From NCBI RefSeq assembly GCF_056746865.1, contig NZ_CM163382.1: a DNA stretch of 64,000 nucleotides, one strand, 5' to 3'. This document shows, in pieces, positions 1,875 to 45,424 of the stretch. The position numbers and the translations under genes are program-made. The notes under the pieces were generated by a model. That model did not search any database, was not told the origin of the DNA, and was given only the letters and a program-made list of their open reading frames with translations. How positions within the stretch are numbered: position 1 is the first letter of the stretch; every line of letters begins with the position of its first letter.

Positions 1875-1887
1875 CACCTTCTTATTC
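1875..1887. other. Prophage attachment site core, int-proximal (attL); 13-bp CACCTTCTTATTC
   Basis: Exact 13-bp direct repeat of 44579..44591; lies between the potC start and the integrase gene. Confidence 0.6.
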
Positions 1888-2032
1888 ATAAGGCGGGACA
1901 CTTTCAGGATTTTGAATTTATTCAATTTTTCCCTTTCTCCAAAATCTCTCCAAAACGTTTCCCCAAAACTAGGCCACGCATTTTACAACACTTTTTTCCT
2001 GAGATGGTGACGGATATTCCATATGGTGTTTG

Positions 2033-3151
2033 TCAAATAACCAACTTAACCCATTCCTGACCTCGAGTATCGTTATAGCGATCGGTGGTTGCCTGGACTT
2101 TATGTCCTAGTAATGTTTTTGTATCGATACCCTGTGCACGGTACAGCCGTTCTGATAGAGAGCGTTGTTCATGAAATGTTGGCGGAGTTTTTCCTGCTGG
2201 TGGAATTATCCCAGCCAGATCCCGTGCTTTGGCAAAGTAGTCGCTCAGGTTGTCTTTACTCATCGGCTTCGGTTGTTTCTGGTGCCGACTATGGATTAGA
2301 TATGGACTTAATATTCTGTCTCGGCACCCATCAATAACTTCTTTTAACGTTATCCCAATGGCATCACAGCGTAGTGTAAGCGGTAACGCCAGACGCATTC
2401 CGGTTTTTCCCTGGGTGATATGCAAGTGTTCGTTCCACACATCTGAAAAACGCATGTGGCAAATGTCATCACGGCGCTGACCAGTAACAATCGCAAGAAG
2501 CATTGCGTTACGGATAAAGTGTTTTTCAGGCGTTGCATTGTAAATTTTTTGCCAGTCTTCCATGGTGAGCCTGGCTCTGGTTACTTTAGGGATCGGTTTA
2601 CGGGTAGCCTCCGGAGGATTCCATCCAGGAGGAACTTCCCCTGCATGCTGTGCTTCTTTATAAATATCAACCCATAATCCACGATTTACTCTCGCTGTGC
2701 TGACCATGTCTTTATCCAGCCACTCATCCAGTATTAATGCAAAGTCTCTTACTTCCAGTTCTTTCAATGGGTGGTTTCCCAGACGGGAAACCAGGTATGC
2801 AGCCATTCGAGTTTTTTCTTTGTGAGTTGTAGCTGCAATATCTCCATTTTTCAGTCGCGTGTTCTGTATTTTCAGATATCGATCAACCCATGCCTTTAAT
2901 CTGATACCCCGACGTTTTGTTGCTGACGGACTTTCATCAATTTTGCGCATGAAATATTCAGCTTCTGCTGCAGCTATTCGCTGATTGGCTGTGGAAGCGA
3001 TTTTTTCTGCCTTACCTTTGTCTGTTCCGAGTCCGTGAAATTTTCCAGTCACAGGATTTTTATACTGGTAGTAAACTCTGCCAGTTCTGCGATCAAACTT
3101 TTCGTAAAGACCGGCTACGTCAGTGCTGTTTTTTCGTGGCCTCGGTGACAT
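2033..3151 (-). CDS. int: Phage tyrosine integrase (lambda Int family)
   Basis: 372 aa; C-terminal LLGHKVQATTDRYNDTRGQEWVKL resembles the lambda Int catalytic tail; adjacent to att core. Confidence 0.9.
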   Translation of the reverse strand: MSPRPRKNSTDVAGLYEKFDRRTGRVYYQYKNPVTGKFHGLGTDKGKAEKIASTANQRIAAAEAEYFMRKIDESPSATKRRGIRLKAWVDRYLKIQNTRLKNGDIAATTHKEKTRMAAYLVSRLGNHPLKELEVRDFALILDEWLDKDMVSTARVNRGLWVDIYKEAQHAGEVPPGWNPPEATRKPIPKVTRARLTMEDWQKIYNATPEKHFIRNAMLLAIVTGQRRDDICHMRFSDVWNEHLHITQGKTGMRLALPLTLRCDAIGITLKEVIDGCRDRILSPYLIHSRHQKQPKPMSKDNLSDYFAKARDLAGIIPPAGKTPPTFHEQRSLSERLYRAQGIDTKTLLGHKVQATTDRYNDTRGQEWVKLVI

Positions 3152-39004: not shown

Positions 39005-39604
39005 ATGCGTAAAGTTTGTGCAGCCATTTTGTCCGCAGCCATCTGTCTGTCCGTATCCGGTGCGCCTGCATGGGCGTCTGAACATCAGTCCACACTGAGC
39101 GCAGGGTATCTTCATGCCCGTACGAACGCTCCCGGCAGCGATAATCTGAACGGGATTAACGTGAAATACCGTTATGAGTTTACGGACGCGCTGGGGCTGA
39201 TTACGTCCTTCAGTTATGCCAATGCTGAGGATGAGCAAAAAACGCACTACAGCGATACCCGCTGGCATGAAGATTCCGTGCGTAACCGCTGGTTCAGCGT
39301 GATGGCGGGGCCGTCTGTACGCGTGAATGAATGGTTCAGCGCGTATGCGATGGCGGGTGTGGCTTACAGCCGTGTGTCGACTTTCTCCGGGGATTATCTC
39401 CGCGTAACTGACAACAAGGGGAAAAAGCACGATGTGCTGACCGGAAGTGATGACGGTCGCCACAGCAACACGTCTCTGGCGTGGGGAGCTGGCGTGCAGT
39501 TTAACCCGACCGAATCCGTGGCCATTGATGTCGCTTATGAAGGCTCCGGCAGCGGTGACTGGCGTACCAACAGTTTCATCGTTGGTGTCGGTTATAAGTT
39601 CTGA
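39005..39604 (+). CDS. lom: Outer-membrane protein Lom (Ail/Lom family)
   Basis: 199 aa, signal peptide, beta-barrel pattern ending GVGYKF. Confidence 0.9.
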   Translation: MRKVCAAILSAAICLSVSGAPAWASEHQSTLSAGYLHARTNAPGSDNLNGINVKYRYEFTDALGLITSFSYANAEDEQKTHYSDTRWHEDSVRNRWFSVMAGPSVRVNEWFSAYAMAGVAYSRVSTFSGDYLRVTDNKGKKHDVLTGSDDGRHSNTSLAWGAGVQFNPTESVAIDVAYEGSGSGDWRTNSFIVGVGYKF

Positions 39605-39662: not shown

Positions 39663-42600
39663 GTGGATATGGCAGCAGTAAAAATCTCAGGTGTGCTGAA
39701 AGATGGCACAGGAAAACCAGTACAGAACTGCACCATTGTGCTGAAGGCCAGACGAACCAGCAGCACGGTGGTGGTGAACACGGTGGCCTCTGAAAATCCG
39801 GATGAAGCCGGACGTTACAGCATGGATGTTGAGCATGGCCAGTACAGCGTCACCCTGCTGGTTGAAGGTTTTCCGCCTTCACATGCCGGGACCATTACCG
39901 TCTATGAAGGTTCCAGACCAGGTACGCTGAATGATTTTCTCGGTGCCATGACGGAGGATGATGTCCGACCGGAGGCACTGCGCCGCTTTGAGCAGATGGT
40001 GGAAGAGGTGTCACGTAACGCCTCCGCGGTTGCACAGAATACGGCAGCCGCGAAAAAATCAGCCAGCGATACCAGTGCATCAGCCAGCGAGGCGGCAACT
40101 CATGCAACCGATGCTGCAGCCTCAGCACGTGCCGCCAGCACGTCAGCCGGACAGGCCGCGTCGTCGGCTCAGTCAGCGTCTTCCAGCGCAGGAACGGCAT
40201 CGACAAAGGCCCGTGAAGCAGCAAAAAGTGCTGCTGCTGCAGAGTCATCAAAAAGCGCGGCAGCTACCAGCGCCAGTGCCGCGAAAACGTCAGAAACGAA
40301 TGCCGCAGCATCACAAAAATCGGCAGCCACTTCTGCATCCACAGCGACCACGAAGGCGTCAGAAGCTGCCACCTCGGCACGGGGTGCGGCGGCCTCAAAA
40401 GAGGCAGCGAAATCTTCAGAAACGAATGCATCATCAAGTGCCAGTAGTGCAGCTTCCTCGGCAACGGCGGCAGGAAATTCCGCGAAGGCGGCAAAAACGT
40501 CCGAGACGAACGCTAAGTCTTCTGAAACAGCAGCGGGACAGAGCGCCTCAGCTGCGGCAGGTTCAAAAACAGCGGCTGTATTATCTGCCAGTGCCGCGTC
40601 AACAAGTGCCGGGCAGGCCTCAGCCAGTGCCACCGCCGCCGGAAAATCGGCAGAAAGCGCCGCATCATCCGCTTCAACAGCCACAACGAAGGCTGGCAAA
40701 GCCACTGAGCAAGCCACTGCAGCAGCGAGGTCTGCTTCTGCAGCAAAAACCTCTGAAACAAATGCAAAGACTTCAGCAGACAATGCTGCTTCCTCTAAGG
40801 CGGCAGCCGCATCGTCAGCCAGTTCAGCGGCGTCATCGGCATCATCTGCGTCTGCTTCAAAAGATGAGGCGACCAGACAAGCGTCAGCAGCGAAAGGTAG
40901 TGCCACGACAGCAACAACGAAAGCATCAGAGGCGGCAGGCAGTGCGACGGCTGCATCTCAGAGCAAAGTTGCTGCTGAATCCGCGGCAACGCGCGCCGAG
41001 ACAGCAGCAAAACGGGCAGAGGATATTGCATCCGCCGTGGCGCTGGAGGATGCGAGCACGACGAAAAAGGGGATAGTACAGCTCAGCAGTGCAACAAACA
41101 GCACCAGTGAAAAGCTGGCGGCAACGCCAAAGGCAGTTAAAACTGTTAAAGATAGTTCAGTTCAAAAAACTGGCGACACAATGGGAGGGCAGTTAAAAAT
41201 CAGCACGATAAATGCTCTTCGAATATTCAACCAAGCCTTTGGCCTTATTTTTAGGCGTTCCGAAGATCATCTTCATCTTATTCCGACTAATGAAGGGGAG
41301 GGGGAAAATGGAGACATCGGTTCATTAAGACCATTCTCTATAAACTTAAGATCAGGGTTGGTGTCCATCGGTAATGGACTAAAAGTTGGTGGTAGTGTTA
41401 CTGGTAATTTGACCGGAAACGCAGATACTGCGACCAAGATCAAGACAGCACGTAAGATTGGGGGCGTGGCATTTGATGGATCGGCAGATATCAACTTGCC
41501 TGGAGTCAACGCTACCGGTAATCAAAACACTACAGGTAATGCTGCGACCGCCACGAAACTTCAGGCAGCCAGAACGATTAACGGTGTGTCATTTGATGGT
41601 AGTGCAAATATCACATTGACCCCTTCAAATATTGGGGCATTGGCATTAACTGGAGGGACTCTTTCAGGTGGTTTAACTGCTGCTGGTGAGGTTATTTCAA
41701 GGTCAGCAAATGGTCTGCGTATTGCCTATGGCAACTATGGATTCTTTATCCGAAATGATGGATCAAACACATATTTTATGTTGACAGATTCGGGTAACAG
41801 TCTTGGTACGCACAATAGCTTAAGGCCGTTTATAATTAGTAACCATACTGGCAATGTTACAATTGCAACTAAATTAAACGCGAGTGGTGGTATCACTGGA
41901 TCTTTATCGGGTAATGCAAGCACAGCAACCAAATTGCAAACTGCAAGGACAATTAACGGCGTAAAATTTGACGGCTCGGCAAATATTGAAGCGTTTCCGC
42001 CAGGTGTTCCGCTGCCGTGGCCATCAGATACACCACCTGCAGGTTATGCAATCATGCAGGGGCAGACGTTTGATAAGGCAGCATATCCGAAACTGGCTAT
42101 TGCCTATCCTTCAGGTGTTATTCCAGATATGCGCGGCTGGACAATCAAGGGCAAACCCGCCAGTGGCCGGGCCGTATTGTCTCAGGAACAGGACGGCATT
42201 AAATCGCACACCCACAGCGCCAGCGCATCCAGTACGGATTTGGGGACGAAAACCACATCGTCGTTTGATTACGGCACTAAATCCACGAATAACACCGGGG
42301 CGCATACGCACAGTCTGAGTGGCTCTACGGGGTCTGCCGGTGTTCATACTCATGGTAATGGTATTCGTTGGCCAGGAGGCGGCGGTTCTGCGTTAGCATT
42401 TTATGATGGCGGTGGGTTCACTTATGTCCAGAATTCACAGTATCAAGTAAGCCCGGAGACTTCTTCCTATAGATCGTATTATCAACGTATTCAGACACAG
42501 TCAGCAGGTGCTCATACCCACTCGCTGTCTGGTACTGCAGCAAGTTCTGGCGCACATGCACATACTGTAGGTATTGGTGCGCATACGCACTCCGTTGCGA

Positions 42601-42698
42601 TTGGTTCACATGGACACACCATCACCGTTAACGCTGCGGGTAACGCGGAAAACACCGTCAAAAACATCGCATTTAACTATATTGTGAGGCTTGCATAA
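39663..42698 (+). CDS. stf: Side tail fibre protein Stf
   Basis: 1011 aa; N-terminus [23 protein letters not shown] and C-terminus ...[18 protein letters not shown] as lambda Stf; long Ala/Ser-rich repeats. Confidence 0.9.
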
Positions 42699-43282
42699 TG
42701 GCATTCAGAATGAGTGAACAACCACGGACCATAAAAATTTATAATCTGTTGTCCGGAACTAATGAATTTATTGGTGAAGGTGATGCATATATTCCGCCTC
42801 ATACAGGTCTGCCAGCAAACAGTACCGATATTGCACCGCCAGATATTCCGGCTGGCTTCGTGGCTGTTTTCAATAGTGATGAGTCATCGTGGCATCTCGT
42901 TGAAGACCATCGGGGTAAAACGGTTTATGACGTAGCGTCAGGGGACGAGTTATTTATTTCTGAACTCGGTCCGTTACCGGAAAATGTTACCTGGTTATCG
43001 CCGGAAGGGGAGTTTCAGAAGTGGAACGGCACAGCCTGGGTGAAGGATACGGAAGCAGAAAAACTGTTCCGGATCCGGGAGGCGGAAGAAACAAAAAACA
43101 ACCTGATGCAGGTAGCCAGTGAGCATATTGCGCCGCTTCAGGATGCTGCAGATCTGGAAATTGCAACGGAGGAAGAAACCTCATTGCTGGAAGCCTGGAA
43201 AAAGTATCGGGTGTTGCTGAACCGTGTTGATACATCAACTGCACCTGATATTGAGTGGCCTACGAACCCTGTCAGGGAGTAA
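42698..43282 (+). CDS. tfa: Tail fibre assembly protein Tfa
   Basis: 194 aa, [18 protein letters not shown]... as lambda Tfa. Confidence 0.9.
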
Positions 43283-43336
43283 TCATTGGGATTATGCCGC
43301 AGCACGTCTTAAGCAAGAACGTGCTGCGGTTGGATG

Positions 43337-44005
43337 CTATTTTTTCCCTGAAGCGGAAAACATTACTACAGTACCTTGAACCTTGGTTTTAACATTCTCG
43401 AAATGCTCTGAGAGTATATGTGTTAAGCCTTCTTCGGAATCTTTTGTGTTTGAAAAGATGCCTTTCTGATTGTAAATGCGCATCAGTTTTTGACCGAAGC
43501 TATTGTGCACAACTCCATCGCCAAGAATTGTGGCTCCGTATAGAGTTCCATCGTCAGTTAAGGCCTGCGCCGCATTGCGTATTACACAGCTTTTTGTAGA
43601 TATATTTCCAGGCAGGCAGTGAAGAAGGTAAAACATGGAAATGGAATCAAATTGACCATGTAACGCCGCGGGATAAGGTTCAAAAACATCATGGCTAATT
43701 TTATGTTTAATTTTTGATTCCCCAGCCCTTGTAGATGCCGCGTTCAGGCTAGCTTCGTTCAAATCCATTAAAGATATCAGACTACTCTCAGGTACGTGAG
43801 TAAGGTAAAACCCAGTTCCAACACCAATATCCAGATGGTTGTTACCTAAATGTTCCAGAAAGTGTGGAAGAAGGTGTTCCTTTGTAGGACATCCCCATGC
43901 AAGCCGATTTGATACTCCCAAAACCCACCAGTCATAAAGCTTTAGGGTAAGTGGTGTGTAAATTTTAGCCCCATCATCTGTGTTTTTTTTCATTGATTTC
44001 ACCAT
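43337..44005 (-). CDS. Class I SAM-dependent methyltransferase-like cargo protein
   Basis: 222 aa; motif-I-like LDIGVGTGFY; AT-rich relative to flanks; opposite strand to the tail genes. Confidence 0.6.
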   Translation of the reverse strand: MVKSMKKNTDDGAKIYTPLTLKLYDWWVLGVSNRLAWGCPTKEHLLPHFLEHLGNNHLDIGVGTGFYLTHVPESSLISLMDLNEASLNAASTRAGESKIKHKISHDVFEPYPAALHGQFDSISMFYLLHCLPGNISTKSCVIRNAAQALTDDGTLYGATILGDGVVHNSFGQKLMRIYNQKGIFSNTKDSEEGLTHILSEHFENVKTKVQGTVVMFSASGKK

Positions 44006-44061
44006 GTTATAGTTTTATTTGTAAATTAAATCAATTATGGCGATGAATTACAAGGGGTTAA

Positions 44062-44328
44062 ATGCTGCCGCAGCATAGCGATATTGAAATAGCCTGGTAT
44101 GCTTCGATACAGCAGGAGCCGAATGGCTGGAAGACCGTCACCACACAGTTCTACATCCAGGAATTCAGTGAGTATATTGCGCCACTGCAGGATGCTGTAG
44201 ATCTGGAAATCGCAACGGAGGAAGAAAGATCGTTGCTGGAGGCATGGAATAAATATCGGGTGTTGTTGAATCGTGTTGATACATCAACTGCACCTGATAT
44301 TGAGTGGCCGACTTCACCTGCAGAGTAA
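44062..44328 (+). pseudogene. Duplicate 3' fragment of tail fibre assembly gene (tfa remnant)
   Basis: C-terminal 53 aa nearly identical to Tfa C-terminus; DNA 44174..44310 repeats 43124..43260. Confidence 0.6.
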
Positions 44329-44560
44329 TCAACGGCGCAGGGATGATATTTTGTGCTTGAAGTGCCTCCCCGACCATTCAGATAGTCGGGGAGGGGGGAT
44401 TGGGATTATACGCAATCAGTTTTAGTTAAAGACCGAAGTTCTCGAAAAATCTTTCTCCAAAACCAGAATGCAATTGATTGATTTTGATAGGATCTATAAT
44501 GCCGTTACCTTAAACGGCAAAACCACTCAAAAACAAACCTAATGCATTGAATATAAAGGA

Positions 44561-45424
44561 TTAATCATCTAATTCGCTCACCTTCTTATTCAGCAAACGA
44601 GAAGCGCGCCAGTAAACCAGCAACATCAGGCCCATTACGATAGTCAGCGTAATGCTGGTGGCTGCACCAAACGGCCAGTCACGAATATTGAGGAACTGTA
44701 CTTTGATGACGTTACCGATCAGCAGGTTTTTCGCACCGCCCATCAGGTCGGACACATAGAACAGGCCCATCGCTGGCAGCATCACCAACAGGCATCCGGC
44801 AATAATCCCCGGCATCGTCAGTGGGATAATGATACGGATAAAGGTCTGCAACTTGCTGGCACCGAGATCGCGCGCCGCCTCCAGCAACGGCTTATCCAGT
44901 TTTTCGATACTCGAGTACAGCGGCATCACCATAAACGGCAGCAGAATGTAAACCAGACCGATAATCACCGCACTGGGTGTGAACATGATGCGAATTGGTG
45001 TATCGATAACGCCCAGCCAGAGCAAAAACTCGTTGAGATAGCCTTTGGTGCTGAGGAAAATTTTCAGCCCGTAGATACGAATCAATGAGTTGGTCCAGAA
45101 CGGAACAATCAGCAGAAACAGCAGCAGCGGACGCACCTTGTGTGGCAGCTTCGCCAGAAACCAGGCAAAAGGATAGCCCAGCACCAGGCAGGCGAGGGTG
45201 GCGATCAGCGCCATATTCAGCGAGTGCAATAGCACTTCAAAATAGAGCGGATCGAGCAGACGCGTGTAGTTATCCAGCGTAAAGACCATTTTGACGAAAC
45301 TGGCGTCGTCGCGGGTCAAAAAGCTGGTGCCAATGATCATCAGGTTGGGCAGAAAGACAAACAACACAAGCCAACCGACAATAGTGACAATCACTACATT
45401 CTGGAACTTACTTGTGTTCTTCAT
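44561..45424 (-). CDS. potB: Spermidine/putrescine ABC transporter permease PotB (3' end supplied by prophage sequence)
   Basis: Polytopic membrane ORF overlapping potA stop; C-terminal codons lie on the phage side of the att core; start may be the downstream GTG (about 45394). Confidence 0.9.
44579..44591. other. Prophage attachment site core, distal (attR); 13-bp CACCTTCTTATTC
   Basis: Exact direct repeat of 1875..1887; lies within the 3' end of potB. Confidence 0.6.

Follow-up and report, generated by a model that had tools for sequence, protein, structure and literature searches.

How does a methyltransferase gene that runs against the late tail operon of a prophage come to lie between two copies of the end of a tail fibre assembly gene, and what might its product do? 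The locus lies at the right end of a lambdoid prophage of 42.7 kb, which sits in the 3' end of potB within the window, as the whole 64 kb stretch of DNA that was analysed is called here. A first-pass annotation had placed at the distal end of this prophage, in AT-rich DNA, a 222-aa minus-strand ORF with a motif-I-like sequence, flanked by a repeat of the 3' end of tfa, and had suggested capture of the cassette by recombination within tfa. The ORF is present (Table 1) and its distal position is borne out by the 14 nt att core CACCTTCTTATTCA, which occurs twice, at 1875–1888 and 44579–44592, with the integrase ORF and potC at the left end and potB at the right, where the second core restores the 3' end of the gene. 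The DNA is indeed AT-rich, the methyltransferase gene having a GC content of 0.41 and the cassette's unique part (43290–44150) one of 0.417, against 0.506 for the prophage.

Upstream of the cassette, a stretch identical to stf is annotated in RefSeq as "prophage tail fiber N-terminal domain-containing protein". The product of the intact tfa matches phrog_105, "tail fiber assembly" (E 1.3e-100, residues 1–192), and is named tail fiber assembly protein in RefSeq genomes. A second hairpin, at about 44363–44396, is found between the tfa remnant and attR, which is about 250 bp away from the cassette. The DNA downstream of the remnant also trails the intact tfa in prophages that are free of the cassette.

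Table 1. Features of the prophage and its right end in the window, and extent of homology to the window in nine other contexts
Feature	Position	Strand	Remarks
potC	1072–1866
Integrase ORF	2033–3151	-
lom/ail	39005–39604
stf, side tail fibre gene	39663–42698	+	1011 aa; upstream of cassette; from ORF list
tfa, intact tail fibre assembly gene	42698–43282	+	194 aa
Left (L) repeat copy	43106–43263	+	encodes conserved Tfa C-terminal domain
Hairpin between convergent tfa and methyltransferase genes	43296–43330
ybcY-family class I SAM-dependent methyltransferase	43337–44005	-	222 aa as annotated
Divergent spacer, methyltransferase promoter region	44006–44061	-	56 nt
Chimeric ORF, tfaX type	44062–44328	+	88 aa
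Illegitimate (microhomology) junction, phrog_3893-type gene / tfa 3' end	44149–44160	+	codon-level comparison
Right (R) repeat copy	44155–44312	+	includes 38-nt block 44272–44309
Phage DNA from tfa remnant to attR	44329–44592		~250 nt
potB	44561–45424		potA and pepT also right of prophage
Homology, phage Ayreon	43137–44148
Homology, L015 (strain 11899A_LBHALD, potB site)	from 43137		runs on rightward
Homology, L001 (UMNK88, potB site)	from 42501		left collinear, upstream stf also matching; runs on rightward
Homology, phage ev243	43162–44286
Homology, strain A3	43166–44088
Homology, ST131	43185–44309
Homology, O157:H7	43291–44286		other cargo between tfa and gene
Homology, K-12	42844–44308
Homology, Citrobacter (L029)	43325–44148

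The locus carries the ybcY-tfaX cassette, here intact, which is known, very common and already annotated. The segment 42698–44560 (1,863 bp) is 99–100% identical in many E. coli chromosomes, where RefSeq labels it in turn tail fiber assembly protein, class I SAM-dependent methyltransferase, and tail fiber assembly protein (incomplete). In prophage DLP12 of strain K-12, tfaD, ybcY (minus strand) and tfaX (b0562 and b0563 for the latter two) have the same order and orientation, and the DNA is 97% identical over the homologous region, with the same hairpin, spacer and chimeric junction. The K-12 ybcY is a pseudogene due to a 2-nt deletion near its start and its TfaX is ended at 61 aa by a stop codon, whereas both frames are intact in the window. 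The K-12 cassette is also placed differently, being in DLP12 at argU and followed by appY-ompT, whereas that of the window belongs to a full-length potB prophage and is followed by attR.

Of 5,426 complete E. coli genomes, 3,797 carry the unique part of the cassette, with up to four copies each, and 3,438 give a match to a 161-nt probe spanning the chimeric junction. That 3,438 genomes, K-12 with its DLP12 included, share this junction indicates that it arose once and then spread, and that the cassette is old and widely distributed. It is seen at several chromosomal sites (argU/DLP12, trpA/ompW, and potB) and in free phages. In 14 phage records, the methyltransferase is 98.6–99.5% identical at the protein level over its full length, the named phages being ev243, 2G7b, PhiR29, Kati, and Turner. 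The cassette is also found in viable lambdoid phages. Many copies of ybcY are truncated or are pseudogenes, as in K-12 and in variants of 130–194 aa, so that the gene is not under selection everywhere.

The second copy of the tfa 3' end had been described as a truncated remnant, and this is what it is: it lies inside the 88-aa ORF, in which the Tfa profiles phrog_105, phrog_188, phrog_136, and phrog_3792 match residues 29–87 only (E 1e-19 to 1e-22). The conserved C-terminal helical domain of Tfa is present, while the N-terminal fibre-binding domain is absent, residues 1–37 being non-Tfa. The ORF matches phrog_2341 over its full length and phrog_3893 on residues 3–37. Its first 37 residues share 76% identity with an intact 80-aa ORF in Citrobacter, and its N-terminal part 51% with one of 79 aa in Klebsiella phage Kp4882-3. 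In the Citrobacter element, it is the methyltransferase segment alone that is homologous to the window; the intact 80-aa ORF is divergent from the methyltransferase and is followed by a UmuD-like gene. Homology to the Citrobacter element and to phage Ayreon ends at the same position, 44148. A codon-level comparison of both repeat copies of the window with the Citrobacter and Klebsiella sequences places the join at the adjacent nucleotides, in frame and within a patch of microhomology, CAGGAA..AG. On this comparison the 88-aa ORF is evidently a chimera, its first 30–36 or so codons belonging to a small phage gene of the phrog_3893 type and its last 52 or so to tfa. RefSeq calls a frameshifted "DinI family protein" in the spacer of one genome, which was not reproduced here. 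A tblastn search with an intact Citrobacter DinI gave no match in 44000–44400, and the call was rejected because the plus-strand match to the 80-aa ORF explains the spacer DNA better.

The chimeric ORF could itself be functional, for example as a trimerisation domain of Tfa acting on its own to modulate or poison tail-fibre assembly in its own phage or in rivals, which would make this a two-gene cassette. The fusion is in frame and retains the conserved trimerisation domain, the exact 88-aa sequence is present on at least 1000 contigs and has its own PHROG in phrog_2341, and genomic SELEX gave a second promoter, toward tfaX, in K-12 (PMC3946193). This abundance is, however, explained by hitch-hiking with ybcY, and the C-terminal part varies between copies. 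Besides the short TfaX of K-12, that of phage ev243 has a replaced C-terminus (101 aa), phage Ayreon and strain A3 are wholly without the tfa part, and members of the cluster scatter in length from 44 to 88 aa. With the fibre-binding N-terminal domain missing as well, there is only a small chance that the ORF contributes a function of its own.

The 56 nt between the divergent genes are identical in the window and in K-12. Two minus-strand promoter matches, TTGATT (44034–44029)-17-TATAAC (44011–44006) and TTAACC-16-CATAAT (44061–44034), are present here, although such matches are at chance level in a scan of the window. Genomic SELEX in K-12 showed that the RpoD holoenzyme binds this spacer; TTGATT-17-TATAAC was ascribed to ybcY, and an H-NS site is marked there also (PMC3946193). 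Expression of ybcY in the lysogen is plausible. At the other end of the gene, the hairpin between the convergent genes is likely to be a transcription stop, judging from the folding of 43283–43350, at -28.5 kcal/mol (z = -4.2) for the plus strand and -25.4 kcal/mol (z = -4.6) for the minus strand. A consensus terminator scan did not call this hairpin, the loop of which is above the limit of the scan. A T-run stands behind the hairpin on the plus strand. A 25-nt repeat (D2) with an 11-nt core, ATTGGGATTAT, which follows both hairpins, was dismissed as being at chance level.

The description of the gene product as methyltransferase-like can be made firmer. It has HLDIGVGTGFYL at residues 57–68, in which LDIGVGTG (residues 58–65) is the glycine-rich loop of motif I, (E/D)xGxGxG, and D59, G61, G63, and G65 stay unchanged throughout 26 homologues. 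Pfam matches are to Methyltransf_12/23/25/11 (best E 6e-9), and the predicted structure, built on the 26 homologues (pLDDT 89.7), has the seven-stranded alpha/beta fold with an acidic residue ending strand 2 that is characteristic of class I SAM-dependent methyltransferases. A full-length match to phrog_2132 (E 7.9e-157, residues 5–222 on 1–218 of 218), listed as "unknown function" in PHROGs, together with the tfa - ybcY(-) - tfaX synteny, places the protein in the YbcY family. RefSeq names this family as WP_000240999-type "class I SAM-dependent methyltransferase", and the product falls in a 90%-identity cluster of 6,589 sequences. Matches to NCBIfam are all sub-threshold (CpaM, 17 bits against a cut-off of 180; RquA, 17 against 175), and therefore no family name can be assigned from them. 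A sequence search of the PDB likewise gives only weak matches, to JHAMT and UbiG (E 2e-5 to 8e-4). Translation probably begins at Met5 (43993), for a protein of 218 aa, since most homologues and the PHROG profile start there; the annotated start would then be four codons too long.

Across the 26 sequences there are 60 invariant columns, including YDWWVL, HLDIGVGTGYY, DLN, HD, DSxS, YLLHCLPG, and YNxKGIFSN. The dN/dS of ybcY is 0.20 against the mobile allele of Citrobacter and 0.11 against that of Salmonella. These values and the invariant columns therefore argue that the gene is functional and under purifying selection.

A structure search had been recommended for placing the enzyme among the methyltransferase subfamilies, and this leads to relatives of the small-molecule type. 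In AFDB50, the protein is 36–47% identical to fungal enzymes of about 220 aa, among them VerB, with 36% identity and a TM score of 0.91. It is also 41% identical to a fungal protein named VrtF. The counterparts of VerB, namely DovB, AurB, and CtvB, O-methylate the hydroxyl of an alpha-pyrone (PMC12312803). The bacterial protein shares with AurB, CtvB, AstB, and DovB (VerB) membership of a family of single-domain class I methyltransferases of about 220 aa; the fungal members are in biosynthetic gene clusters with a PKS, whereas the bacterial homologues are solitary, without a cluster. This family is compact, with 421 clusters at 50% identity (E <= 1e-30) among 1.84 billion representatives. Homologues with 55–70% identity, from Salmonella, Enterobacter, Klebsiella, Yersinia, Erwinia, and Aeromonas, are found in other Enterobacterales as solitary (monocistronic) genes of the chromosome. 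Around 8 homologues from Salmonella, Enterobacter, Yersinia, Aeromonas, Klebsiella, Erwinia, and Citrobacter, of which 7 lie outside E. coli prophages, neither a conserved neighbour nor a partner in an operon was found, and the neighbourhoods therefore give no hint of a pathway. Distant members of the family bear generic source names, such as "UbiE" or "type 12".

Orphan DNA methyltransferases are frequent in phages and have the same Rossmann-like fold, and the enzyme could then be a DNA (or RNA) methyltransferase with a role in anti-restriction protection or in epigenetic control. Fold neighbours at similar Z do include the tRNA-modifying CmoA, Trm9, and METTL6. None of the DNA-methyltransferase families of Pfam is matched, however, direct reading of the sequence finds neither a (D/N/S)PP(Y/F/W) nor a PCQ motif, and at 222 aa the protein is without a target-recognition domain. 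In PADLOC there is only a marginal match to mad2 (E 0.0031, 14 bits), a generic overlap of methyltransferase domains, with no match for the 88-aa ORF. The closest relatives come from stand-alone chromosomal genes and from fungal secondary metabolism, which leaves a slim chance that nucleic acid is the substrate. The comparison of methylomes proposed earlier would probably be uninformative for ybcY and miss the point, given that its nearest relatives act on small molecules and that no DNA-methyltransferase family or motif was found.

The nearest relatives are small-molecule O-, C-, or N-methyltransferases, and by its sequence the enzyme resembles the small-molecule O-methyltransferases and not the DNA methyltransferases. 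The chemistry and substrate that we infer from this are most likely the O-methylation of a small molecule in the lysogen rather than of DNA, and the target may possibly be a hydroxylated heterocycle, a pyrone or a phenol-like compound. Identity to the characterised enzymes, at 36–41%, is too low for transfer of the substrate. A literature search found no functional study of ybcY; a ybcY mutant was without effect in a screen for Hha toxicity.

The repeat that brackets the gene had been given as about 137 bp at roughly 90% identity. The repeat is real, with 89.8% identity in that span, and it is also longer, extending over 158 nt at 88% identity; blastn within the window aligns L with R at E = 2.9e-53. 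For the shorter span, the first copy stays at 43124–43260 and the second, at an offset of 1049 nt, is 44173–44309 rather than 44174–44310. The longest perfect block of the two copies is 38 nt, with 43223–43260 in L corresponding to the block in R. Residues 102–192 of Tfa match the C-terminal halves of many Tfa PHROGs, and the passage of PMC9608196 that cites North et al. 2019 describes the C-terminal domain as a conserved trimerisation module, with a fibre-binding N-terminal domain that varies. The copies differ by 12%, and at 22 codons, of which 11 differ synonymously and 11 non-synonymously, and for this reason L and R are two different alleles of tfa and not a fresh duplication.

The suggestion of capture by recombination in tfa is right in that there is a recombination junction inside tfa, and wrong in placing the capture and duplication here. 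A local event, in which the tfa 3' end was duplicated in place as the methyltransferase cassette inserted into tfa, would account for direct repeats on either side of the cassette and for a junction within the tfa reading frame. It would not account for copies that have the divergence of two alleles, for a right copy joined to another gene's 5' end, or for the identical junction in 3,438 of 5,426 genomes, at several chromosomal sites, and in free phages, and it is very unlikely. It is hardly credible that the repeats are what is left of an invertible segment for tail-fibre switching (Gin/Pin/Cin) with alternative tfa genes. Such segments do duplicate tfa sequences, and in ST131 an inverted tfa and the remnant of a pin gene lie directly upstream of the cassette, but the copies here are direct, with no inverted repeats within 42600–44500, no invertase nearby and no recombinase ORF from stf to attR, and the DNA between them is unrelated cargo and not an alternative fibre tip.

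Nine other contexts were each compared with the window for the start and end of homology. Within the left repeat are the breakpoints at 43137 (in two contexts), 43162, 43166, and 43185, and within the right repeat those at 44286 (in two), 44308, and 44309. To the left of the homology there are unrelated tail-fibre modules. To its right there is an alpha/beta hydrolase with ompT and int, IS66, a DUF4376 remnant with rha, or attR at potB. In phage Ayreon a scar is left, 43373–44031 having been deleted.

The sequence expected of a crossover between L and R was constructed and searched against genomes. It matches, as one uninterrupted piece at 97.8%, the potB prophages of O104:H4 2009EL-2071, TUM9757, and others, which have a single tfa and are without the methyltransferase. 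The tfa of these cassette-free prophages is of the L type at all diagnostic sites to 43222 and of the R type after 43261, and the crossover is therefore in the 38-nt identical block. These alleles could be the products of deletion, or they could be the ancestral recipient or partner of the crossover by which the cassette came in; either origin yields an identical hybrid, and in both cases the exchange point is in the repeat. Since the breakpoints and the cassette-free crossovers sit inside the repeats, and mostly in the 38-nt block, the repeats are homology arms through which the cassette can be exchanged or lost. Red-beta-dependent recombination of lambda with stf/tfa DNA of Rac at 88% identity has been measured (De Paepe et al. 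2014, PMC3945230), and this system is alike in the genes, in the level of divergence, and in having crossovers between mismatches. There the exchange of lambda with Rac or Qin was measured, whereas here it is deduced from natural variants, and the homology here is limited to the C-terminal segment of about 158 nt.

In lambdoid phages, an extra gene between conserved phage genes is a moron in the sense of Hendrix and Juhala. The cassette is like other lambdoid morons in its deviant base composition, its own promoter and stop signal, and its position between conserved genes, opposed to the late operon, and it is likewise absent from otherwise near-identical prophages. Its place among them is indicated by the GC difference, the cassette-free alleles, the hairpin, and the SELEX promoter in the identical K-12 spacer. 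Unlike other lambdoid morons, it is bracketed by two copies of the segment that encodes the Tfa C-terminal domain, and these provide homology arms on both sides.

It is likely, if short of certain, that the locus is a lambdoid moron cassette with its own promoter, an old right junction, and repeats that serve as recombination arms, and that its enzyme acts in O-methylation of a small molecule. The anatomy, chimeric junction, spread, crossover points, fold, and purifying selection are the observations on which this reading is built, and from them an order of events may be proposed. The ancestral phage would have had tfa, the hairpin, ybcY on the minus strand, a small gene on the plus strand, and then the rest of the right arm. 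The AT-rich segment of about 0.83 kb (43325–44150), with a stand-alone methyltransferase under its own promoter and set against the late tail operon, comes right after a complete tfa and a hairpin, and this extra gene is dispensable for phage growth. One illegitimate (microhomology) crossover would then have joined the small divergent gene to the middle of the tfa of another phage, which would have swapped the right arm, left a harmless tfa tail of about 52 codons, and made the 88-aa chimera. Relaxed homologous recombination in the repeats, through host RecA or Red-beta-type recombinases of phages, may since have coupled the cassette to other tail-fibre modules on the left and to other right arms, with their cargo, att, and int, on the right. 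Recombination of L with R would also delete the cassette, leaving a single hybrid tfa.

As a discovery the locus has little weight, the ybcY/tfaX arrangement being annotated in thousands of genomes and in K-12. A literature search found no paper tying a methyltransferase moron to tfa. It is, however, a clean natural example of a Tfa C-terminal-domain segment as a recombination linker, and filled, empty, and scarred alleles of the ybcY cassette all exist for study. Prophages in about 70% of complete E. coli genomes carry ybcY, which encodes an intact, uncharacterised enzyme under purifying selection, and identification of the substrate would show what one of the most frequent prophage cargo genes in E. 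coli does. A speculative and rather doubtful extension is that YbcY is a lysogenic-conversion enzyme, which O-methylates, and so inactivates or alters, a pyrone- or quinolone-like or hydroxylated heterocyclic toxin, antibiotic, or signal of the gut, and that tfa repeats are general portable arms for cargo. If this is so, the benefit conferred by YbcY would explain the retention of the gene in about 70% of E. coli genomes, and cargo such as ybcY, T3SS effectors, and cdt would be swapped between the tail-fibre genes and the non-essential b-region before att.

The prophage has inserted inside the 3' end of potB, and a 14 nt att core is present at both of its ends. The final codons and stop of potB are on the phage side of this core, which means that the end of the gene has been rebuilt by phage DNA. 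The original potB end, displaced, is found at attL, where it adjoins potC.

Features of the window and of the comparison loci (L-numbers) in other phages and genomes
Feature	Locus	Position	Strand
att core, 14 nt	window	1875-1888 and 44579-44592	
potB ORF	window	44561-45424	
Final potB codons and stop	window	44561-44578	
'Hypothetical protein' WP_001309429.1, 45 aa (RefSeq annotation)	window	43255-43392	+
Annotated methyltransferase start (MVKSM...)	window	43993-44005	-
Segment missing from phage Ayreon	window	43373-44031	
Repetitive stretch of stf	window	40000-41100	
Cassette deletion scar, phage Ayreon	L010	3494-3842	
cif-cdtABC region, phage cdtI	L011	868-5583	
tfa remnant, phage cdtI	L011	3501-3689	
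Cargo ORFs and tfa remnant, Stx1a_EH2115	L012	2345-4150	
Cassette region, ST131 strain 751	L014	1-4417	
Cassette region, O157:H7 MB41-1	L016	331-2544	
Cassette region, Citrobacter	L029	4307-4941, 5745-5996	

WP_001309429.1 spans the tfa stop, the hairpin between the convergent tfa and methyltransferase genes, and the 3' end of the latter, and it looks like an annotation artefact. The methyltransferase as annotated is probably four codons too long at its start. Met5 is the start in most of 25 homologues and in the PHROG profile, and TATAAC, the -10 hexamer assigned by genomic SELEX on the identical K-12 ybcY/tfaX spacer (PMC3946193), directly adjoins the annotated ATG. Elsewhere in the prophage, stf contains a long repetitive stretch that is rich in Ala, Ser, and Thr, with GC near 0.60 and a strong AT skew; the UMNK88 copy of stf is annotated as frameshifted.

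In Citrobacter, one flank of the methyltransferase holds an intact 80-aa ORF and a UmuD-like (S24 peptidase) gene that is split, and the other flank holds dinI. This layout probably closely resembles what existed before the chimeric small ORF arose in E. coli. The Ayreon locus bears the scar of a cassette deletion. Still present there are the 3' tail of tfa, the hairpin, the final 36 nt of the methyltransferase gene, and the spacer along with the 5' end of the small ORF. Ayreon is a viable phage without a full tfa.

The surroundings of the cassette differ between strains. In O157:H7 MB41-1, intact tfa is separated from the methyltransferase by a stress-type cargo block (manganese catalase, two ferritin-like proteins, and a general stress protein), and an IS66 element follows the tfa remnant. 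In ST131 strain 751, a module for tail-fibre inversion (one tfa, a second tfa in inverted orientation, an inverted fibre tip, and a pin remnant) precedes the cassette, and another remnant, of DUF4376 type, comes after it. One end of this prophage, near trpA, thus carries a stack of three chaperone fragments.

Remnants of the tfa 3' end also come after other cargo. Stx1a_EH2115 has two putative cargo ORFs and then a tfa 3' remnant before attR at potB, and in phage cdtI a tfa remnant lies between cif upstream and cdtABC downstream. Tfa C-terminal fragments may be common cargo boundaries in lambdoid prophages.
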